Assembly: GCA_036489755.1 (NCBI GenBank)
Contig: DASXFD010000009.1
Span: forward strand, 16,304 to 80,303
Direction: 5' to 3'
DNA from: Kofleriaceae bacterium
GTDB lineage: Bacteria; Myxococcota_A; Polyangia; Haliangiales; Haliangiaceae
Length of the DNA stretch: 64,000 nucleotides
Shown here: positions 42,013 to 51,746 of the stretch, one piece after another
Position numbering within the stretch: position 1 is the first letter of the stretch
Layout: each line of letters opens with the position of its first letter
Translations under genes and position numbers: made by a program
Notes under the pieces: generated by a model
What the model saw: the letters and a program-made list of their open reading frames with translations, nothing else
Database searches by the model: none
What the model was told of the DNA's origin: nothing

Positions 42013-42354
42013 CTACGGGTTTGCTACGCCGTCAGAACCGAGCAAGACCGTTGCGCAATTTAGAGCGGGAGAAGGGATTCGAAAGATGAGGAACACGCAG
42101 AGCCGAGCACATGCCAGCAGTCGAACCAGCAACATAGAGGGGACGAAATGCTCGCGAATGGTCGTGAGTGCTCGGTACTGGACCAACCCGTGGTCCAAGT
42201 AGGTCCAATCGACGACCTGCTCGACGGCGCACTCGCCGCCTGGCGAACCAACCGGGATTCGCGAGCTCTCCGCCGCGCGCTTCTTCGCGTGCTCGGTGAG
42301 CTGGAAGAGCACGCCTGATGCCACTGTGAGTGCCCATTGTGGCGCCACGATCAC
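42013..42354 (-). CDS. Candidate small membrane protein translationally coupled to the S8 peptidase gene
   Basis: GTG at 42354 overlaps the peptidase TGA (GTGA). 113 aa with a balanced composition and one C-terminal hydrophobic helix (MLLVRLLACARLCVFLIF). No homology recognised. Confidence 0.3.
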   Translation of the reverse strand: MIVAPQWALTVASGVLFQLTEHAKKRAAESSRIPVGSPGGECAVEQVVDWTYLDHGLVQYRALTTIREHFVPSMLLVRLLACARLCVFLIFRIPSPALNCATVLLGSDGVANP

Positions 42355-44720
42355 GCGACAGTCGTCATTCGCACCGGTAGCCGCACGAGTGGCGTCAGTA
42401 CCCGATACTGCGATGCGACCATGTCGTAGACGGCGTGGTTGGATAAGCACCGGATCGTGAGCATCATCGCGAAGCGCAGCGGCTGAATCGCCTTGCCCTT
42501 GACCAATCGGCCGTTCTCGCGCCGGAGATGAAGTAGATCTAAGCGTGGCTCGAATAACTCGCCAGCCTTCAACAAAACCCGCCCAGGCATCACCGTTTCC
42601 CACTTCCCGTCGCGACGGAGCAATTGTTCACCCTTCGTCAATGACCAGTTGGAATGAGCGCTCGGCTCCTCGGACAGACGCGAGCCAGCGGCGAGTGCAG
42701 CCGCGATCTGTGTACGGTCTGCAACAGTATCCACGGGCGTGGTTTTCTTCGTGTTCGGATCCGTGAGCGTGTGTTTGCGGGAGTCCGGACGGAAGATCGT
42801 TTCGATGCCCGTGAGCGTGTAATCGGTCGCGTCCCGCGGATCGACGTCGGCGACGTAGCTCAGCGTCCAGAACAGCTCGAACTTCACATCAACTGGCAAG
42901 CCACGCGGGAACGGAAACCGCAGGGCCGTGCTCTCACCTCTTGGCAACTCATCCTCGTAGAGGACCGTCACCTCGTTCGAGGCGCACTCGAATGCCGGCG
43001 CGAACGAGGCCGGCATGCGCCCGTAGCCGAGGTTGCAATACTGCTTGCCGTGCCCGCGGCCGCGCTCTGCGTGATGCACCGTGAATACACGGAAGATGTC
43101 GGGGCGATGACGCGCCGCTTCGATCAGACTCTGCAAGCCACCGACCGCGCGGCCGACGGTCGGCGACGCGAAGCTCGTGCCGGCCGCGGTCGTTAGTCGT
43201 CCGCGATCGTCGAAGCCTACGAAGAGTTCGTCGTCGCTACCACCGAACTCAACAACCAGTGGCTGCACGCGCTGGCCTTCCCGGCCAGGGCCGCGAGCCG
43301 AGTAACTTGCTCGGTGCCACCGCTTCTTGGGATCCCGCGGATTCCTCGTGATCGCGCCGACGCCGATGCCGTTCACCATGTCACCAGGCGGCTGAACCCG
43401 ATCGTATCCAAGCTCTGTGTCGAGTTCGCCGTTATTGCCGACGGCGACGATGAACGTGATGTCCTGCTCGAACGCGAGCGCATCAAGTTCCGCCGTGAAG
43501 CGGTCCGGCTCGGAATGCTCGTCGATCGAGTCGTTAGGCCCGATGGACAGGACGACGATCGGGTAGTGGTGTTGCTGCAGCGTTGCCTTGATCTTATCGA
43601 GCACGTCGTAGAGCCGGTGATCAGGCGCCCCCTTTTGCAGCGGCGGCATAGGAAACACACGGTAGTGGTCGATGTTCACGGTCGGATCCGGCAAGGTGCT
43701 CGCCGGATCGACGGAGCCATACAACAATGCGCTCGTGACCATGCTGCCGTGCTTGAGCGCGATGCCACCCGCAGGCTGTGTCGTCAGGGGATACGTCTTC
43801 ACAAACGGCGCGAAGACGGGCAGTTTGTCGTTAACTCCTCCGTCGAACACCGCGATCGTGTGCAGCGGGCGCTCACCGGCTCGGCATGCGCGCGAGAGTT
43901 TCGGGTGGCTATGCACTACTCGAAGAGAGTCCTCCGGGAACGGAGCAAACTCCGGCATCGGACGGAGTGCGCGCAGCAGGTTGAACTCGGCGATTCGATT
44001 CATCGCGCCCGCCGGCGCGAGCACCGGAACGAACGTTAGACCGCCGACGTCACGTCGGTATTCTGCGTCGACGACTCCACCGCGCGAACGAACCATCAAG
44101 GCGAAGCGTGCGAAGTTCTCATCGGCCCATACGGCCTCGTGTTCCGGATCATCGAATATGTGCGAGAGGACCGCTTCGAACGTGATCGGTGCACGTTGGG
44201 GCTCGACGGGCCGACCAACGATCACTGACTCGATCGGCGGAAGGCCGACCGCGCTGAATCGACGCAGTTCCTCCCATTGCTTCTCGTTATGCCAGTTCGG
44301 TGCATCGCTGACTTGCTTGGCCAGGCGCTTCACCGCGGCCGGCGCGCCGGCTAGGAGTAACGTACGCGTCGTCTGATCCTCCAGCACGCGCTTCGCGGTT
44401 CGTTTCGTCGCATAAGCAGCACGCGCACCGACTACGTACACGCCGGCAGCCTTCAGCACTTCCGCCGGGAAATGACTTGGCGCCAAGTAGTTCGGATACA
44501 GCGTCGCTTCGATGACGACGTGCCTCCCTACGACCTCGGGCGAGAGCGTTTCGAGCGACCTCATCATGGTGTTGACCTGCGGCGCGAGTAGCGCGTGCGC
44601 CTCTGCGGTCGTGACGGGATGGAACTTGTTGTCGCGCGACGACCGCGGTCGAGTCGCCTTAGCCTTCAAGCGCTCGCCGTTCGCAAGTAGGGGCCGACGG
44701 ATCACGGTGTCTTTACTCAT
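42351..44720 (-). CDS. S8 (subtilisin-like) serine peptidase, IetS-like
   Basis: 789 aa. Catalytic triad motifs IAVFDGGV (Asp), KHGSMVTSA (His) and AAGTSFASPTV (Ser); oxyanion VAVGNNGE. The N-terminal 270 aa and C-terminal 200 aa are of unknown function. Confidence 0.85.
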   Translation of the reverse strand: MSKDTVIRRPLLANGERLKAKATRPRSSRDNKFHPVTTAEAHALLAPQVNTMMRSLETLSPEVVGRHVVIEATLYPNYLAPSHFPAEVLKAAGVYVVGARAAYATKRTAKRVLEDQTTRTLLLAGAPAAVKRLAKQVSDAPNWHNEKQWEELRRFSAVGLPPIESVIVGRPVEPQRAPITFEAVLSHIFDDPEHEAVWADENFARFALMVRSRGGVVDAEYRRDVGGLTFVPVLAPAGAMNRIAEFNLLRALRPMPEFAPFPEDSLRVVHSHPKLSRACRAGERPLHTIAVFDGGVNDKLPVFAPFVKTYPLTTQPAGGIALKHGSMVTSALLYGSVDPASTLPDPTVNIDHYRVFPMPPLQKGAPDHRLYDVLDKIKATLQQHHYPIVVLSIGPNDSIDEHSEPDRFTAELDALAFEQDITFIVAVGNNGELDTELGYDRVQPPGDMVNGIGVGAITRNPRDPKKRWHRASYSARGPGREGQRVQPLVVEFGGSDDELFVGFDDRGRLTTAAGTSFASPTVGRAVGGLQSLIEAARHRPDIFRVFTVHHAERGRGHGKQYCNLGYGRMPASFAPAFECASNEVTVLYEDELPRGESTALRFPFPRGLPVDVKFELFWTLSYVADVDPRDATDYTLTGIETIFRPDSRKHTLTDPNTKKTTPVDTVADRTQIAAALAAGSRLSEEPSAHSNWSLTKGEQLLRRDGKWETVMPGRVLLKAGELFEPRLDLLHLRRENGRLVKGKAIQPLRFAMMLTIRCLSNHAVYDMVASQYRVLTPLVRLPVRMTTVA

Positions 44721-45836
44721 TCACGACCTCCTTACGTTCGACGTCGCCTTGTCCTGCTTCAGCAGCTTGCCGACCATAACGTGCGAGATGCCGAGTTCTG
44801 CGCCGATCTCTCGCTGCGACAAGTCGAGATGTTTCGTAGCGATGCGGCAGTAGCGAACACGGGCCGCCGGGTCTTGGTCAACTTGTTCTCTGAGTCGCGC
44901 CAGGAGTTCTTGGCTAGCGACCTTGTCGATATCGATGTCGTCCAGAACGACGCGACGTACACACGCTCGAGCGAATGCGGCGAGATCAGATCCTGAGATC
45001 CCGTCCGTTGCCTCGACGATCGCTTCAAGTGTGCCCTTGGAGGGAATCTTTGCGAGACGCGAGAACTCACGCGTGAGGAGCGCGCGACGGACATCTGTAG
45101 TTGGCAGTCCAATCGCAATCACTTTCTCGAAGCGACGCCAGATGGCTCGATCGAGCAGTTCCGGGTGGTTGGTGGCGGCAACGACGAGCCCGTGCGAAGG
45201 CCACGCCTCCAGCTCGATCAGCAACACGTTGACGATGCGCTTCAGTTCGCCGACATCGGAAGGATCGTCGCGCCGCTTGGCGATCGCGTCGAACTCGTCC
45301 AGGAACAGCACCGTCGGCGACTCGCGGGCATGTGCAAACACATCAACGAGGTTCTGCCCCGTTTTCCCCAGGAAACTCGACATCAGCGCGGCGACATCGA
45401 CCCGATAAAGCGGGAGAGCGAGTCGCCTCGCAACTGATCGCGCACAGATCGTTTTGCCGACTCCCGGAGCACCGGTCAGCAGCAAGGTACGCGTCGGCGA
45501 GAGTCCGACGGCGGTAAGCGCGTCAACTTGATTATGCTCATTCAGGATCGCATCGAGCTCGCGCGCGACCGCTGAGGACAGCAGCGGCTCATCTCCCGCA
45601 GCGACTTCCTCGATGCTTAGGAAAGGGAACGAGTCGGGTTGATTGGGCTCAGCGAAACGCATCGTCGACGATGCGTTGTCCGCCACGAGCTCTGCGAGCG
45701 ACTGTTTGGTGGACTGTGCGATGTTCTTATCCGTGGCGGCGTTCTTGAGAAAGCGGCGGAGGTAGCGACCAAGTGACGCCTTGTCTCCCTTGAGACCGAG
45801 ACGAGCGACTTGGACCAGTGCCTCATCAGTATTCAC
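44721..45836 (-). CDS. AAA+ ATPase with C-terminal HTH, IetA-like
   Basis: GTG start. Walker A GAPGVGKT, Walker B LFLDEFD, sensor-1 VVAATN, Arg finger RAIWRRF. C-terminal LSQREIGAELGISHVMVGKLL is an HTH. Its stop abuts the peptidase ATG (TGAATG). Confidence 0.85.
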   Translation of the reverse strand: MNTDEALVQVARLGLKGDKASLGRYLRRFLKNAATDKNIAQSTKQSLAELVADNASSTMRFAEPNQPDSFPFLSIEEVAAGDEPLLSSAVARELDAILNEHNQVDALTAVGLSPTRTLLLTGAPGVGKTICARSVARRLALPLYRVDVAALMSSFLGKTGQNLVDVFAHARESPTVLFLDEFDAIAKRRDDPSDVGELKRIVNVLLIELEAWPSHGLVVAATNHPELLDRAIWRRFEKVIAIGLPTTDVRRALLTREFSRLAKIPSKGTLEAIVEATDGISGSDLAAFARACVRRVVLDDIDIDKVASQELLARLREQVDQDPAARVRYCRIATKHLDLSQREIGAELGISHVMVGKLLKQDKATSNVRRS

Positions 45837-45858
45837 GAAGACACCATGCCCGATGCGT

Positions 45859-45884
45859 GGTAACCGGTCAATCCAAACGTTACC
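45859..45884. promoter_or_regulatory. Operator-like inverted repeat in the AT-rich leader of the AAA+/S8 operon
   Basis: GGTAAC-N14-GTTACC within the most AT-rich stretch of the window (a 45% GC line at 45841), 23-48 nt upstream of the ATPase start codon. Confidence 0.3.
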
Positions 45885-46172
45885 GAAATATGACTAATTT
45901 TAAGAAATACAATATATTGCGCTGGAAACCGTGGAGATCCCGCTCGGTCGAGCGCGCTCAGCAAGCCCTTGCGGCCGTCCATCGAGGAGCTGAAGTCGAG
46001 CGCGTGTTGATCTGCCGACATGCGACGGCTTCTTCGCGAAAACGAGCTCGCTCCCTACGTGCCGAAGTGCGCGAGGCGCCGCCTGCCGCGACCGACTGGC
46101 GCGTGTACGCCGATTGGTCCTAACGAAGGGTTCGCCGCGAGCTTGCCTCGCCAGCGACCTCGACGCGGATAT

Positions 46173-47873
46173 CTAGCTGTTCCGGGCGCGATGGCGCGCA
46201 CGACGCGTTCGCCCGATTACCCGGCCAAGCTGTTCCGCGGTTCGAGCGTAGCGGTTGGCGCGGGTCGTCCAATTCGCCTGCTCGCTGCCTCGTGCGAGAG
46301 CCGCCATGTCGTCGCAGCATTTCACGGCCTGCTCACACGCAAGTGCGTAGTTTGGACGTTCCGCGAGAATGGACTCAAAGATCGCGAGCGCCTCCTTGCT
46401 GCGCCCGACGCCCCGGAGCGCGACGCCGCGTGCATACGCGAACACAGCGTCATCGTCTTGGAGTGAGTTGAGTCGTTGCAACGCGTCCTCGCGGCCCGAC
46501 AAGGCGTGCGCGATGGCGACAAATGGCTTCGCCGCCGTCGCGAACGGCTCGGCAGTTCCGATCGCATTGAGGTAGTCCAGGGCGGCGTCGAGGCGGCCTG
46601 CGGCGAGATGAATGATCGCTGCTTCGAAGTTCAGGCCAGGCTCGCAAGCCACGTCCGCGAAGCGAGCGACCATCGGCAAAACGTGTTCGAAATCCCCTCG
46701 AACGAACGCTTGTTGTACGAGCACGCGCGCCATCCAAAGCACGGCTGATGGTTCGTCACATGCAGCCGCAAGCTCGCCCGGATCAGCCCCAACGCGGAAC
46801 GCGCGTGCAATGCGACGCTGCGTTCCGATCGAAACTTTGCCGATGGGTACGGGCGTGCGCGCGACGACTTCAACTTGAGCGAGCAGCCAATCTGCGCGAG
46901 AGGCTCGAAGGTCGGTCGCCCACGCAACTCGTCGCGTAAGCTCCGCTGGCGACGGCAAATGCTCTTCTCGCGTTGCGCTCGAGGTCGCTGCGAGAATCTC
47001 GTCGAGACGCGTCTCACATCGGGCAAGTATGTCCATCAGTCCATCGATGCTGGGCGCGCGGGCGCCGGCGATGATCAAGCGAGCGATCGCGCCTCGAACC
47101 TGATCGTCGTCCGGGTGTTGTCGGTAAACCTCGAGCAAAAGCGTGCGCGTGTTCGTTCGGATGCGCCGGAACGCGCTAGCGATCTCCTCGACGACATCGC
47201 GTCCGACGACGGCGGCGAGCCGGTTGCACAGCCCGTCGAGCGCAAACGCCCATACAAGATGCGTGTGCCACGCGTTATGCCCGTCGCGGTTGCGGAGCGC
47301 GGCCGCGAGCTGGCGCAGCTTCGTATTCGATGGGCGGCTTCGACCGTCGAAGAGTTCCTCGAAGCGCTTGCCTAGCGTGGCGCGCTTCGTACCAAGAGCT
47401 TTCGGCAATGCTCGAAGCAGATTACGCACGCCGTGCTCGCGTGCCCACACAGGTACGTTCGCGCGGCCATCTTCGAGCAGTGGAGGCGGCGGAAGAACTC
47501 CTTCGACCATGTCGACCGCGGCGGCACGAAGCGCGACGTCGATCGCAACGAGCCGCAGAAAGCGCGTTGCGGTTGCCGCGACCGCTTCGCCGGACCGCGC
47601 GTCCGCGTGACCGATCACGTGGTCCCAGTTCGCGATCGCGAGCGATAGGCCGTCGACGATGAGAGGGCTGACGCCTTCGGAGAGGTAGCCGTCAGCAACG
47701 CAAGCCCGGACGATTGCGGCTAACGTGCCGTCGCTGAGTGGACGTTGCCCCCGAAGATACTTTCGCCCACTCTCGCGACGGCCTTTCTCTAACGACAGGT
47801 TGAGCGCCCTCGCCATCATGCCGAGGAGAGCCGCGGAGCTAGGCAACGGGAACTGACGAGGATTGGACGCCAC
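46173..47873 (-). CDS. Protein with two XRE-like HTH-like segments and a C-terminal TPR-like domain, function unknown
   Basis: 566 aa, GTG start. KYLRGQRPLSDGTLAAIVRA and LGKRFEELFDGRSRPSNTKLRQLAAAL fit the G-x-R-x-P-S...L..(I/L)A.AL signature of XRE HTHs. The C-terminal 200 aa are TPR-like (AIIHLAAGRLDAALDYL; YARGVALRGVGRSKEALAIFESIL). Confidence 0.65.
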   Translation of the reverse strand: MASNPRQFPLPSSAALLGMMARALNLSLEKGRRESGRKYLRGQRPLSDGTLAAIVRACVADGYLSEGVSPLIVDGLSLAIANWDHVIGHADARSGEAVAATATRFLRLVAIDVALRAAAVDMVEGVLPPPPLLEDGRANVPVWAREHGVRNLLRALPKALGTKRATLGKRFEELFDGRSRPSNTKLRQLAAALRNRDGHNAWHTHLVWAFALDGLCNRLAAVVGRDVVEEIASAFRRIRTNTRTLLLEVYRQHPDDDQVRGAIARLIIAGARAPSIDGLMDILARCETRLDEILAATSSATREEHLPSPAELTRRVAWATDLRASRADWLLAQVEVVARTPVPIGKVSIGTQRRIARAFRVGADPGELAAACDEPSAVLWMARVLVQQAFVRGDFEHVLPMVARFADVACEPGLNFEAAIIHLAAGRLDAALDYLNAIGTAEPFATAAKPFVAIAHALSGREDALQRLNSLQDDDAVFAYARGVALRGVGRSKEALAIFESILAERPNYALACEQAVKCCDDMAALARGSEQANWTTRANRYARTAEQLGRVIGRTRRARHRARNS

Positions 47874-47898
47874 GTTGCCTGCTCACTGTACGACGGCG

Positions 47899-48102
47899 TT
47901 AGCCGCCCGCGCCGGATCCTGCGCCCCCGCCGTTGGTACTGCCACCACCACCGCCACCGCCACCGCCACCATTGCCGCCGGCGGCACCAGTCCCGTTTCC
48001 CCCGCCCGCTGGCGCGTTTGCGCGACCATCGCCAGACGCCTTTCCCGTCGTGCTTGGCCAGCCCGGGAAGCCCTTACCGCCACCATGATTTCCTTTGCCC
48101 AT
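47899..48102 (-). CDS. 67-aa glycine-rich peptide
   Basis: MGKGNHGGGKGFPGWPSTTGKASGDGRANAPAGGGNGTGAAGGNGGGGGGGGGGSTNGGGAGSGAGG has 34 Gly of 67 residues. AAGGAG lies 8 nt upstream of the ATG. It stops 25 nt before the next gene. Confidence 0.55.
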   Translation of the reverse strand: MGKGNHGGGKGFPGWPSTTGKASGDGRANAPAGGGNGTGAAGGNGGGGGGGGGGSTNGGGAGSGAGG

Positions 48103-48230
48103 ATCGCATGCTCCTTCGAATGTCCTCGAGATTGAGGATCAGCACGAAGAGCATGACTTCGAGGCGCGCGCGCGCATCCGGGCGAAGCGGTCGGAGATCG
48201 ATGGAACCGTCGAGCGCGACCGTGTGCAGG

Positions 48231-49130
48231 CTATCTGCCAACGTGAACATCAAACTCGGGATGGACACGCCGAAATAGGTCGAGAACTTCCTGCCTCCGC
48301 ACGTCCATCTCGCGTATCGCGCTCGCTGTCATCTCATGCATCGAGCATTCTGGTTTGTCGCACCCGCACGGCCTGATTTCCTTGGCGCGAACCAGTTCGT
48401 CAAACTTGCTGCGCAAGCTCACCAGCGCAGACTCGGTCTGCTTAAGCCTCTTCATTGCTGCTGCGCTCTTCAATTCGTGGCGTGATGGGATTCGTCCCAA
48501 AGCGACACCATCACGCGTTTTTTGGACGCCTGTGTTCAGCGCCATGATCGTGTCGGTAAGCGCAGCCTTGAAATCCGCTAACGAGCTCTCGCCGTGGAAC
48601 GGCGTCGTAAACGCTGGGCGGTCAAAGGCAGCCGCCATCAACCTCAATGTCTCGACATCGCCGAGCTTCTTCGCCGGCCGCGGAAATCCCTTCCAGTGCT
48701 TTGCTATGAGCGCTTCGTCGGCTGCGAGGTCCGCGATGATGTCGTCCCAGAAGACAATCTCTGCACGAAACGGCAGGCCGTCGTTGCGCGAGTACAAGCG
48801 CAGTTCGGCTTGAAGCCGTGCATCGCGATCTCCGCTTGTGAGCACCAAGAACTCGCCGAGCCCACCCGGGAACGCTTTCGCGTTCTCAATATCGCCCGTG
48901 AACATCTTGAGCTTCAGAGCGTTGGTGTTCTTGCACTGCGCGCCAGCTGTCTTACCGTTCAGCCAACTCGGCTTGCCGAGGATGTCGACGCCGCCCTGCC
49001 GTTGCCCTCGACGCCCGTTCAACGCGGCATGTCGGTCGTTCCAGCGAATGCGCAGAAAATCGACGGAGATCTGTTCGAACTCGTCCTCGCTTCGAGGCTT
49101 CGGCCACTTGGATGTGCTCGGGCTCGGCAT
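48231..49130 (-). CDS. PD-(D/E)xK (Mrr_cat-like) restriction-endonuclease-fold protein with unknown C-terminal domain
   Basis: The N-terminus EDEFEQISVDFL...GRRGQRQGGVDILG...GAQCK matches the Mrr catalytic-core pattern (E...D(I/V)...QCK). The C-terminal 150 aa are helical with a CGCDKPEC motif. Confidence 0.7.
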   Translation of the reverse strand: MPSPSTSKWPKPRSEDEFEQISVDFLRIRWNDRHAALNGRRGQRQGGVDILGKPSWLNGKTAGAQCKNTNALKLKMFTGDIENAKAFPGGLGEFLVLTSGDRDARLQAELRLYSRNDGLPFRAEIVFWDDIIADLAADEALIAKHWKGFPRPAKKLGDVETLRLMAAAFDRPAFTTPFHGESSLADFKAALTDTIMALNTGVQKTRDGVALGRIPSRHELKSAAAMKRLKQTESALVSLRSKFDELVRAKEIRPCGCDKPECSMHEMTASAIREMDVRRQEVLDLFRRVHPEFDVHVGR

Positions 49131-49301
49131 CTTGTCGCTAGCATTCTACGGCACGATGACAGTTGCGGCTTGCAGTGCTGTGAAACGGAACGTCCTCTAG
49201 CTGGATGGCTGGCGGACCGATGATGTTGCGGCCCGCGCCGACCGGGCGGAGGCGGCCATGAACAGACCGATGACGAGGTTCTCGACGTCGCTCACGAGCC
49301 T

Positions 49302-50303
49302 CTAGCGTAACAAGCGTTCGCCGAACTCTTCGAGCACGGCGGCCCACGAGTCTGCAGCCCAAAATTCGCCCGGCTTGATCGTGATCCACGCTTGGTACGC
49401 GATGAAATATGCCGCCCAGGCGCGTGCGGCGCGGCGCTCGTTCGGCGTGAACTCATCGCCGCGCGCGGCTTCATAGTCGGCGATGAAGCCGATCACGTCG
49501 TCGTAGGTTGGCGTGTTGCGCGTCATCGATTGCGACCAGTCCGCGATGTGGCCGTGCGCATCGATCCCGACGATCCGCGTTTCGGGCAGTACGGCGAGTG
49601 AGTCCCAATCGTACGTCGCGACGATTTGATCGCCGCGCGCTTTGACGTGCTCGACGCGCCAATCGCCATGTGCGAGGACCAGCGGCGACGGCTCCGCTTC
49701 GGCGATCGCGCGCGCGCGGCTCGCGAGATCGCGAACCCACGCGGTATCGGCCTCGCTCGGCTGGAACAACTTGCTGTGCGGTTGCGCGAACACACGATCG
49801 CGCGGCAGTGCGAAGCGCTGCAATGCAACGGGGCGATGCTTGAGCAGCTGCATGTGCTCGACGAGGCCGCGCGCGAGCACCGAACGTGGCGCCGGATCAG
49901 CGGGTGGCAGATAGGTCTCGATCGTCGCGAGGCCTGCGCCTAGTGGCAATGGGCCGACGAGCGGCTGCGGACATGGAAAGCCCGCCGTGTGCAGCGTGCG
50001 TTGCGCGGCAACAATAGCCTCGAGCGAGGCGCGATCAAATGGCAGACCGGGATTGGTGGCGGCCGGTGGTTTCGCTTTGACAACGACCTCGCGACCATCA
50101 TCGAGCCCGACGCCATGAACGCTGCTGATGCTCGTCGCTTGAAACAAGTAGCCAGCGATCGACGCGTGCAGCGTGCTGCGAACGAACGCATCGACCGCGG
50201 CGAAGATGCGCTCCGGATCGCCCGTGGAGAAGATGTCGAGCTCGACGAACGGCGTCTCCCATTGCGCGAGCTGTTCGGCGATGACGGCAACGGCGTCGCG
50301 CAT
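49302..50303 (-). CDS. Aminoglycoside-phosphotransferase-like (APH / kinase-like fold) protein
   Basis: 333 aa. LAHGDWRVEHV (HGD-x4-N/H Brenner motif) and TYDWDS (metal-binding Asp). Confidence 0.75.
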   Translation of the reverse strand: MRDAVAVIAEQLAQWETPFVELDIFSTGDPERIFAAVDAFVRSTLHASIAGYLFQATSISSVHGVGLDDGREVVVKAKPPAATNPGLPFDRASLEAIVAAQRTLHTAGFPCPQPLVGPLPLGAGLATIETYLPPADPAPRSVLARGLVEHMQLLKHRPVALQRFALPRDRVFAQPHSKLFQPSEADTAWVRDLASRARAIAEAEPSPLVLAHGDWRVEHVKARGDQIVATYDWDSLAVLPETRIVGIDAHGHIADWSQSMTRNTPTYDDVIGFIADYEAARGDEFTPNERRAARAWAAYFIAYQAWITIKPGEFWAADSWAAVLEEFGERLLR

Positions 50304-50313
50304 GGCGCCTAGT

Positions 50314-51225
50314 CTAGGGCATGTCTCATAACCGGTCGCGATCCAAGTGCGCGGAGTTCGATCGGTTTTTGCGTGGGATCGACGGTGGATCTTGTCTCTG
50401 ATCTACTCGGTTCGTGGACCTCACCGAGGCGCAGTGGAGCGCCATAGAGCCGTACATTCCTCGTCGAGAATTGCGTCCGCCGACTAAGAAAGGTGGGCGG
50501 CCTTGGCGGTCGGCGAGAGACGTTCTTGATGGCGTGCTGTGGGTGCTCCGCACCGGAGCTCCGTGGGCCGATCTACCGCGTCGATATCCGCCGTATCAAA
50601 CGTGCCATCGACGCTTTCAACGCTGGGTCGCCGACAAGACGTTGCCAAAGATCTTGGCCGGACTGCGACACGACCTCGAAACGCGAGGCGGGATCGAAGA
50701 CGTGGAGGGATACATCGACGGGACCTACGTTCCGGCGAAAAAAGGGGGGACCTCGTTGGCCGCTGTCGCGCGGGGAATGCCACGAAGGTCATGGCTATCG
50801 CAGACCGCAATGGTCTTCCACTCGCTCTCTATCTTGCGAGCGGAAATCGATACGACAGTGTGCTCACCGAGCGAACTCTCGACGCTGCTTTCGTGGCCAA
50901 GCTACCGCCCCGCTTGATCGGCGACCGAGCCTGGGATGCGGGTGTGCTTCAGCAACGGCTCTGGGACGAACGCAAGATCGACCTGATCGCGCCGAAGCGT
51001 GGCGGTCAGCGGCCGAGTCGACGCAAGCAAGACGGACGCAAGCTCCGCCGTTACAAGCGACGCTGGCGCGTCGAATGGCTGTTCTCTCAACTCAAACGAT
51101 TTCGCCGACTCGCCACCCGCTGGGAGCTGAAGGCAGCCAACTTCTTCGGCTTCCTTCAACTCGCGAGTTGCGTCCTGATCCTTCGCGCTCTGCACGGAAG
51201 GACAAGGTTATGAGACATGCCCTAG
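50314..51225 (+). mobile_element. IS5-family (IS427-group-like) insertion sequence, 912 bp
   Basis: Perfect 20-bp terminal inverted repeats CTAGGGCATGTCTCATAACC (50314-50333; reverse complement at 51206-51225) bracket a two-frame transposase. Confidence 0.9.
50414..51213 (+). CDS. IS5-family DDE transposase, two ORFs joined by a -1 frameshift or slippage at A6G6
   Basis: OrfA (50414-, MDLTEAQWSAIEPYIP...WRSARDVLDGVLWVLRTGAPWADLP) and OrfB (to 51213, ...IADRNGLP...LIGDRAWD...RWRVEWLFSQLKRFRRLATRWE) overlap at AAAAAAGGGGGG (50738-50749). Confidence 0.85.
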
Positions 51226-51746
51226 ACACGCTCCGCGGCGGCTGCGCCGGCGGCGAAGGTCAGTCCGGACAGGCGCCAGGCGGTGGTGGCGGTGCGATCG
51301 ATCTCGTCTCCGGCGGAGCGATCATGATCAACGGCTACGTGCTCGCCGGTGGCGGTGGTGGTGCAGGTGGCGGCGGACCTCACGGAGGTGGTGGTGGAGG
51401 AGCCGGCGGGATGATCGTGTTCGATGCCGCGCAAGGCACGCAGATCGGGTCTGCGGGTAATGTCGATGCGAATGGCGGCGGCGGTGGGCAAGGTCAGCTA
51501 CCCGGTCACAACGGAATGCCCGGCGCGGACTCGACCTCGGCGCTCGTCGATGCGGTCGGCGGCAACGATCCGATGGCTGGCGGTTCCGGCGGCTCCGGCT
51601 CGTTCGGCTCGGACGGCGCTGGCTCTGGACAGGCTCGACCCGCGAGCGCCGGTGGTGGCGGCGGCGGTGGCTCGGGAGCCGTCCTGATCTGGGGTTGCTT
51701 CTCGAACGACGGCGCTATCTCGCCTGCTGCCGACGTGCCGAACTAG
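51226..51746 (+). pseudogene. 3' fragment of a Gly-rich beta-helix-like gene, truncated at the IS end
   Basis: It begins directly at the right IR. GGCAGGEGQ..GGGGGAIDLVSGGAIMINGYVLAGGGGG... parallels GGCSGGSGS..GGAGGGAVQLVAGSSIELVGIVNVGGGGG of the 36949-38433 product. There is no own start codon or N-terminal domain. Confidence 0.7.

Follow-up and report, generated by a model that had tools for sequence, protein, structure and literature searches.

Within a 64,000-nucleotide (nt) stretch of DNA from a Kofleriaceae bacterium (contig DASXFD010000009.1, positions 16,304 to 80,303 of the forward strand; this whole stretch is referred to as the window, and coordinates count from its first letter), three genes designated A, B, and C lie one after another on the minus strand. 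An initial annotation of this DNA had grouped them as a trio, and a single conserved three-gene system is not borne out, as A is absent from two of the loci that carry B and C (L001 and L008). The region is instead read here, with about even confidence, as two separable units, A and B–C, whose joint cassette is confined to this Kofleriaceae lineage. B, the small gene at the head of the pair, represents an unannotated microprotein family. The three genes are as follows:

48231..49130, minus strand: gene A, from the listing of open reading frames (ORFs), ATG start, 299 amino acids (aa), with a predicted Mrr-type PD-(D/E)xK head and an RPAF/CxCx4C C-terminal module
47899..48102, minus strand: gene B, from the ORF listing, ATG start, 67 aa, a glycine-rich microprotein
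46173..47873, minus strand: gene C, from the ORF listing, GTG start, 566 aa, all-helical

The three co-directional ORFs of the initial annotation were recovered on the minus strand at the same coordinates, together with both gaps, of 128 nt from the stop of A to the start of B and of 25 nt from the stop of B to the start of C. The motifs that it had quoted from A are likewise present, namely E17...GVDILG (residues 47–52)...AQCK (residues 64–67) and CGCDKPEC, and its half-glycine mini-protein does contain 34 glycines among 67 residues (51%). Within the window, no paralogues of A, B, or C were found. The loci that carry C compare with the window as follows:

Window: B–C present; A present
L004, L005, and L006: C about 90% identical, with a B-like ORF upstream; A–B–C as in the window
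L001: C 62% identical, with a B-like ORF upstream; no A, and TGT, DndB, and an unrelated 237-aa protein upstream
L008: C 45% identical, with a B-like ORF that carries a 1-nt frameshift; no A-like gene
L003: C 46% identical; only the glycine tail of B on the contig

Judged by co-occurrence, the trio therefore fails, A being found with B–C only in this lineage, while the B–C pair recurs. In each of the four lineages in which the stretch is readable, C is preceded at 18–50 nt by a B-like ORF, and A stands beside B–C only in the window and in L004/L005/L006, which together form a single lineage (about 94% DNA identity). The relatives of A are found apart from the pair: on the contig of its closest full-length relative, P0002 (55% identity), the 233 nt visible downstream contain no B-like ORF, and none occurs in the downstream sequence shown by the contig of another relative, P0033. 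B, in turn, is found without C in a Flavobacteriales metagenome-assembled genome (MAG; L007) and in a soil contig (L015). In L007 (2593–4938), an orphan 43-aa B-like ORF follows the genes for a 257-aa internally repeated protein and for a radical-SAM/cytidylate-kinase fusion, which, as read from its domains alone, would be prokaryotic-viperin (pVip)-like. The proteins that neighbor B in L007 (257 aa), L015 (207 aa), and L001 (237 aa) were compared, and they are unlike A, C, or each other. The dependency within the pair is one-way, in that C is always accompanied by B where the sequence is readable and B is not always accompanied by C.

The sequence that separates A from B also belongs with the pair. 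Two features are distinguished in it:

48103..48230, minus strand: the A–B intergenic region, which is the conserved upstream sequence of B–C itself, with the ribosome-binding site (RBS) AAGGAG
48122..48140, minus strand: a 19-nt box, GATCCTCAATCTCGAGGAC, with TCCTC-N6-GAGGA inside, about 20 nt upstream of the B ATG

L001 lacks A, yet the 100 nt in front of B are conserved between it and the window. No base of the 19-nt box differs among the window, L004/L006, and L001, even though the window and L001 have C proteins of just 62% identity. Because the upstream region and the box are kept in L001 without A, B–C has upstream signals of its own. The part TCGAGGAC of the box is retained in L008, the RBS string AAGGAGCAT is shared with L015, and the Shine–Dalgarno sequence AAGGAG(CAT) precedes the B ATG in both the window and L015. 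A search for further copies of the box, made as a test for a regulon, returned one copy per locus, with none repeated upstream of IetA, the gene that follows C. The A–B gap gave no Rfam match, and its RNA fold is not unusual (z = −0.29). Positions 47579–47607 inside C and 48165–48193 upstream of B pair as a 29-nt inverted repeat that is imperfect (79% complementary) and may be due to chance in GC-rich DNA.

The case for B as a gene comes from comparison of its conserved core across six loci:

48016..48075, minus strand: conserved core of B, KGFPGWPSTTGKASGDGRAN, residues 10–29, from the six-locus comparison

Relatives of B were found by means of a degenerate DNA pattern for this core in two other Kofleriaceae MAGs, a Flavobacteriales MAG, and a soil metagenome, and 17 of the 20 residues of the core (KGFPGWPSTTGxxSGxGRAN) are invariant across the six loci. 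The differences among these 20 codons fall at codon positions 1, 2, and 3 in the numbers 30, 17, and 160, and one pair of loci can differ synonymously at up to 15 codons. Over the core, the two alternative frames diverge or hold stops. This codon-position pattern confirms the mini-ORF proposed in the initial annotation as real and, as a signature read from sequence, clearly marks B as a translated gene under very strong purifying selection. The Flavobacteriales product, MSKGKSGSSKGFPGWPSTTGKPSGSGRANGTPTPKPASSTSKK, has no poly-glycine tail, and the Gly/Asn tail is therefore a lineage-specific, indel-prone appendage; it is of low complexity, fast-evolving, and variable in length among the loci. 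B is basic and hydrophilic, with an isoelectric point (pI) of 10.3 and a grand average of hydropathy of −0.7; B and its relatives together span −0.7 to −1.2 in hydropathy and 10.3–11.5 in pI, and none of them has a hydrophobic segment.

B has been overlooked by automated annotation. No gene is annotated by NCBI between C and A, which bear the consecutive tags VGG74_03805 and VGG74_03810, and the JGI gene callers chose an overlapping frame over B whose GC content at third codon positions (GC3) is 0.82, as against 0.60 in the true frame. As callers pick this overlapping high-GC3 frame, B is missing both from the searched libraries and from the NCBI contig annotation. B accordingly gave no match in Pfam, NCBIfam, PADLOC, or PHROGs, a word-indexed search over 5.8 billion proteins returned nothing, and tblastn against phages and plasmids gave no significant match; DNA patterns for the B motif had two chance matches only in viral contigs. 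A phmmer search with the first 36 residues against 1.84 billion cluster representatives returned one plausible relative, P0042, and two spurious matches. P0042 (L016, 486–698) is a 70-aa ORF in which the B motif stands twice in tandem (FPGYPSTTGNPSGGGRAN… AGWPSTTGNPSGGGRDN…); its contig has just one other long ORF, which by eye resembles a fungal Mmm1/SMP-domain protein, so that the B motif may also exist in eukaryotes. Two further interpretations of B and C were tried and set aside: read-through or fusion of the two was rejected because their relative frames vary by locus, and an amyloid-signaling (BASS-like) pairing was rejected by eye only, C having no NTPase domain and no B-like motif in its N-terminus.

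C is a protein of narrow distribution, with five homologues among the 5.8 billion proteins searched (39–91% identity), all of soil or myxobacterial origin and 539–585 aa long. The segment LPxAAxLLGxLxRALN, which lies upstream of the start chosen by NCBI (547 aa), is conserved in these relatives, and the GTG start that yields 566 aa is therefore the better call. Two regions of C are distinguished:

46284..46691, minus strand: tetratricopeptide repeat (TPR)-like repeat region of C, residues ~395–530, from Pfam, PDB profile, and Foldseek matches
47286..47408, minus strand: candidate XRE-like helix-turn-helix (HTH) of C, residues 156–196, LGTKRATLGKRFEELFDGRSRPSNTKLRQLAAAL, with HTH_3 at E = 0.12 and an hhalign probability of 9.7%

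The TPR array at the C-terminus, as described in the initial annotation, is supported in all five family members by the Pfam models TPR_2, TPR_14, and TPR_19. Profile matches in the PDB over residues ~376–518 include a designed PPR protein (8e-7) and MamA (6e-4), and Foldseek returns generic TPR superhelices, APC3/6/8, MamA, and YrrB. In the AlphaFold2 (AF2) model, which is all-helical, the predicted local distance difference test (pLDDT) score is 59 overall and about 70–87 in the TPR region. The two HTH-like segments noted earlier in C are candidates. HTH_3 matches one of the five family members (E = 0.12), an hhalign comparison of residues 156–196 with seven classical XRE HTH domains gave a probability of 9.7% (E = 0.0033), and pLDDT falls below 50 around this segment; the second look-alike, at residues ~20–55, was seen by eye only, and both carry ...G(R/Q)RP(S/L).... 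Searches of C against PHROGs gave two non-significant matches only (E = 0.025–0.054), and those against Pfam, PADLOC, and NCBIfam gave weak TPR matches only. Scans of metagenome and viral contigs with the C profile, and tblastn of C against plasmids, returned nothing.

Gene A consists of two parts with different histories of association, and its homologue set comprises 34 sequences, most of which share with A only the first ~150 residues, at about 60% identity:

48681..49103, minus strand: N-terminal nuclease domain of A (predicted), residues ~10–150, from alignments and AF2 secondary structure
48234..48653, minus strand: C-terminal module of A, residues ~160–299, DRPAFTTPFHGES ... NTG ... IRPCGCxxxxC, 140 residues with three invariant cysteines

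The residues E17, E19, D24, G47-V48-D49, Q65-C66-K67-N68, and D103 are near-invariant in the head of A, and E17/E19, D49, and Q65-C66-K67 are kept in at least 90% of the 34 sequences. The AF2 model, built on the N-terminal alignment of this set, has a pLDDT of 85.9 overall and above 90 over residues 11–140, and reveals a helix at 15–29, strands at 50–52 and 62–67, a helix, a strand at 93–98, a second helix, and a strand at 122–126. The core order, alpha-beta-beta-beta-alpha-beta, fits the restriction-endonuclease core, in which D49 and QxK lie on adjacent strands, and the catalytic constellation of an acidic residue in helix 1, an aspartate on strand 2, and (E/Q)xK on strand 3 is present. Foldseek, with probabilities of 0.99–1.0, retrieves NucS/EndoMS, Avs4 (8dgf, probability 1.0), Can2, and EcoT38I from the PDB and, from BFVD, proteins of phages named "restriction endonuclease" as well as Mrr-domain and PD-(D/E)xK proteins. 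By sequence, the head matches phrog_8991 in PHROGs (E = 2e-15), and an Aliarcobacter homologue that is 37% identical to A matches Mrr_cat_2 (E = 0.013) and Mrr_cat (E = 0.036); PADLOC and NCBIfam give A no name, and PDB sequence and profile searches were empty. The assignment of A to the Mrr-like PD-(D/E)xK nucleases made in the initial annotation thus holds by fold and motif and without a direct Pfam match, and A is supported on these modeled grounds as a putative Mrr-type nuclease.

The head of A is a promiscuous, swappable effector module. One homologue, P0004, is fused to an AAA_16/STAND fragment, and another, P0030 (281 aa; L010, 1–8846), begins 7 nt beyond a DACNG/DACNH-domain gene, which closes a CBASS-type series of SMODS, HORMA, AAA, two SAVED, and DncV-like+AGS_C genes, so that P0030 may occupy an operonic effector position. 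Other homologues of the head lie among Peptidase_U49, HEAT, and giant AAA genes (L024) and, on an Aliarcobacter plasmid, near a Shedu-family nuclease gene. Relatives of about 400 aa, typified by P0006, lie ~425 nt downstream of a reverse transcriptase gene on three contigs (L012, 6373–9191). This proximity was dropped as a defense association on the basis of the PADLOC ranking, in which generic, Cas1-fused, and homing-endonuclease models of reverse transcriptases came out best and DRT models lower; the enzyme is read as group-II-intron-like, and the link may be incidental.

The C-terminal half of A, RPAF/CxCx4C, is an undescribed exchangeable module on a Mrr-type defense nuclease, and it recurs in three proteins. 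P0002 carries it behind an A-type head, P0033 behind a different Cys/His-rich head that is HNH-like by eye, and an Achromobacter plasmid protein behind a Pfam Mrr_cat head (22.6 bits against a cut-off of 21); the plasmid relatives of A stand alone. As the module is exchangeable and also follows a canonical Mrr_cat head, its part in the protein is probably regulation or targeting. In comparison with Mrr and type IV restriction-like nucleases and the head of Avs4, A shares the core fold, the E...D...QxK arrangement, and a head that can be swapped or fused to STAND, and it differs in its RPAF/CxCx4C module, in having neither a winged-helix nor an NTPase partner domain, and in having no direct Mrr_cat match.

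The two units suggest separate modes of action. A would be a DNA nuclease that works on its own, of the Mrr/PD-(D/Q)xK type with an E...D...QxK head, as its model predicts, and might act as a single-gene restriction-like or abortive-infection effector. B–C would be a two-cistron module that carries a conserved upstream sequence of its own, in which B is predicted to be a cytoplasmic, basic, disordered microprotein with the invariant motif FPGWPSTTG-x-PSG-x-GRAN followed by the Gly/Asn tail. The TPR array is a classical short-peptide-binding fold, and that of C may bind the core motif of B inside the cell; the two proteins would then form a sensor/regulator pair or a neutralizing pair, and not a secreted-peptide quorum system. 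Because C is never found without B and B is also found without C, B would be the primary actor, with a conserved target or role of its own, and C a lineage-specific partner that might serve as a sensor, a sequestering partner, or a regulator, possibly one that binds DNA. The widest form of this proposal, in which a new, almost wholly unannotated cytoplasmic microprotein family extending from Myxococcota to Bacteroidota is coupled in myxobacteria to a dedicated TPR receptor, as a module that gates or triggers neighboring defense effectors (a Mrr-type nuclease, IetAS, or CHAT proteases), is tentative and, on present evidence, rather improbable.

Several observations weigh against the division into two units and against the roles proposed for them. 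A–B–C is shared as a unit between two different flanks, so that the pair may be functionally linked with A in this lineage. The B–C pair is known from four or five lineages, mostly on short contigs, so that the statistics of its context are thin. A itself has no Pfam match at E ≤ 1, and hence no direct match to Mrr_cat, and its Foldseek E-values are modest (5e-3 in the PDB and 1e-4 in BFVD), with match lists that are coherent. The N-terminal 390 residues of C are modeled with a pLDDT below 70, and the HTH match is weak. At L008 (4793–4815; Kofleriaceae MAG SMAG_U5526), the ATG of the B-like ORF (ATGAGCAAGG) is 1 nt out of frame with the conserved core, and this frameshift reflects either an assembly error or a decayed or frameshifted gene.

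Downstream of C lies the pair that the initial annotation had named IetAS-like, an identification that stands:

44721..45836, minus strand: IetA, PADLOC IetA at E = 9e-78 and Pfam AAA, downstream of C
42351..44720, minus strand: IetS, an S8 peptidase, PADLOC IetS at E = 3e-39 and Pfam Peptidase_S8

The order of the two genes, IetA (AAA+ ATPase) and then IetS (S8 peptidase), is that of IetAS, and their NCBIfam IteA/IteS scores fall under the equivalog cut-offs, so that they constitute a divergent pair. A weak HTH_3 match is seen at the C-terminus of IetA (residues 335–360). The gap between C and IetA (45837–46172) is 336 nt long and contains an AT-rich stretch (…caatatattgtatttcttaaaattagtcatatttcgg…), which suggests that IetAS may have its own promoter; the only sigma-70-like match in the C–IetA region is on the plus strand. 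The other B–C loci also have defense-like neighbors, in agreement with the defense-island setting first proposed for this region, to which IetAS itself belongs in the window. The C homologue P0039 (39% identical) adjoins a convergent 783-aa S8 peptidase, and L001 has TGT and DndB upstream of B–C and CHAT proteins downstream, among them, two genes past C, a Borvo-like CHAT protease that matches Borvo BovA at 1.6e-8. An S8 or IetS-like neighbor is present in two of the four readable B–C contexts, in differing orientations, L001 having CHAT instead, and B–C and ietAS show neither steady co-occurrence nor steady co-orientation.

IetAS is described as a toxin–antitoxin-like pair without a known anti-phage mechanism, and variants with essential extra genes have been demonstrated experimentally, such as ietHAS with the SNF2 helicase IetH (PMC13069673). 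B–C could, by analogy with IetH, be an accessory sensor or regulator of adjacent protease systems (IetAS, S8, or CHAT), and a specific link with IetAS is possible: C lies directly upstream of IetA in the window, as do the extra genes of ietHAS (PMC13069673), P0039 abuts its S8 peptidase, and the Borvo-like protease of L001 is two genes from C. However, the accessory gene of ietHAS encodes a SNF2 helicase, whereas here it would be a microprotein/TPR pair that is parted from IetA by 336 nt with an AT-rich stretch and also occurs without IetAS. The orientation varies from tandem in the window to convergent in P0039 and L001, the families of the neighbors differ, the single 19-nt box per locus means that no operator is shared with the region upstream of IetA, and the orphan B genes of L007 and L015 have no protease nearby, all of which make this reading doubtful. 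The model of the initial annotation, in which A, B, and C form one three-gene defense system with an HTH/TPR sensor controlling a nuclease, accounts for the co-directional and tightly spaced genes and for the block at about 94% DNA identity common to two different flanks, and, given the frequent swapping of effectors in defense systems, it can accommodate loci that lack A. It is nevertheless unlikely, as L001 has an unrelated 237-aa protein upstream of B, after TGT and DndB, L008 is also without A, P0002 and P0033 are without a B-like ORF in their visible downstream sequence, the A-type plasmid proteins stand alone, and the upstream region of B–C is kept where A is absent.

The remaining alternatives concern the nature of B and C themselves. 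The initial annotation had likened B–C to the RNPP systems, and the RRNPP signature is defined by five criteria, including a propeptide of 10–100 aa, a secretion signal, and a receptor of 250–500 aa (PMC10075063). B–C resembles pairs such as PlcR/PapR, AimR/AimP, and Rap/Phr in having a small ORF with a good RBS adjacent to a gene for a TPR protein, with probable co-transcription, and would reach the 'loose' level of RRNPP_detector (PMC10075063). The analogy falls short on two of the five points, however: B has neither a hydrophobic h-region nor a signal peptide, and C, while it does contain TPRs, is longer than the receptors at 566 aa. The peptide gene lies upstream, the host belongs to Myxococcota and not Firmicutes, the HTH is only a candidate, and the neighborhood showed neither exporter nor Opp genes. 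The 50 best Foldseek matches of C, whose model is of low confidence outside the TPR region, include no RNPP receptor, and neither do its PDB profile matches. The entire 20-residue core of B is conserved, and not a short C-terminal mature peptide. A quorum-sensing pair of a secreted propeptide and a cytoplasmic HTH–TPR receptor is very improbable. SinI/SinR-type switches rely on a small antagonist that binds an XRE-family regulator within the cell, and B–C would resemble them as a small cytoplasmic protein beside a putative XRE-like regulator; no kinship in sequence or fold is known, and C has a TPR array and not the oligomerization helix pair of SinR. A toxin–antitoxin-like arrangement, in which B would be a small toxic or inhibitory peptide directed at a conserved cellular target and C an XRE-type DNA-binding antitoxin that sequesters B through its TPR array and represses its own operon, would fit the gene order, the small gene preceding the putative HTH gene as the toxin gene comes first in HigBA and MqsRA. 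The near-invariance of the B core across phyla, which fits a conserved target, the single conserved box with its palindrome, and the presence of B–C in mobile islands are also in keeping with it. This arrangement is nonetheless quite unlikely, since the HTH of C is a candidate only, B has no membrane-active or enzymatic feature, C is far larger than known antitoxins, and B occurs in L007 and L015 without C, beside upstream neighbors unrelated to C. Finally, B might be no gene at all but a chance GGN-repeat ORF in GC-rich DNA, or a Gly-codon leader or attenuator for C, as the silence of the annotators, an empty protein search, and the low-complexity tail of variable length might suggest. The chance of this is very slight, as the 30/17/160 pattern contradicts a chance ORF and the other frames contain stops, and the leader or attenuator was rejected because the core is kept at the amino-acid level in the low-GC Flavobacteriales relative, which has no poly-glycine tail.

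If B–C is indeed a peptide–receptor pair as proposed above, the logic of peptide and TPR receptor would extend beyond Firmicutes in an intracellular form that needs no secretion, and the pair, lying beside protease systems in several islands, would be a candidate regulator or trigger for IetAS. B also exposes a blind spot of annotation in GC-rich genomes, in which callers take the overlapping high-GC3 frame, and A adds the exchangeable RPAF/CxCx4C module to the list of Mrr-type defense nucleases.

The region as a whole is a horizontally acquired island. Overall GC falls from about 0.68–0.70 to 0.59–0.66 across 42–51 kb of the window, and GC3 is 0.69–0.74 for IetS, IetA, C, and A and 0.77 for a 333-aa ORF upstream of A, compared with 0.82–0.84 in the adjoining core genes. 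Scans for tRNA genes and Rfam elements at the locus found none. The limit of the block on the side of A is as follows:

49131..49198, minus strand: left edge of the A–B–C block shared with sister Kofleriaceae contigs, from blastn against L006 and L004

The identity of about 94% with L006 and L004 begins 68 nt ahead of A, at position 49198; farther out the flanks differ, with a DciA gene in L004/L006 and the unannotated 333-aa ORF in the window. This ORF (49302–50303, minus strand), which lies outside the block common with L006, has no significant Pfam match; by eye, its HGDW…YDWD resembles aminoglycoside/choline-kinase-type phosphotransferases. An IS4/5-family transposase at 50414–51213 on the plus strand marks the edge of the low-GC3 island, and is split over two overlapping frames, DUF4096 and then DDE_Tnp_1. 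Directly after this insertion sequence, a second glycine-rich ORF (…GGGGAGGGGPHGGGGGGAGG…; ~51219–51746, plus strand) forms a candidate gene that has no Pfam match.

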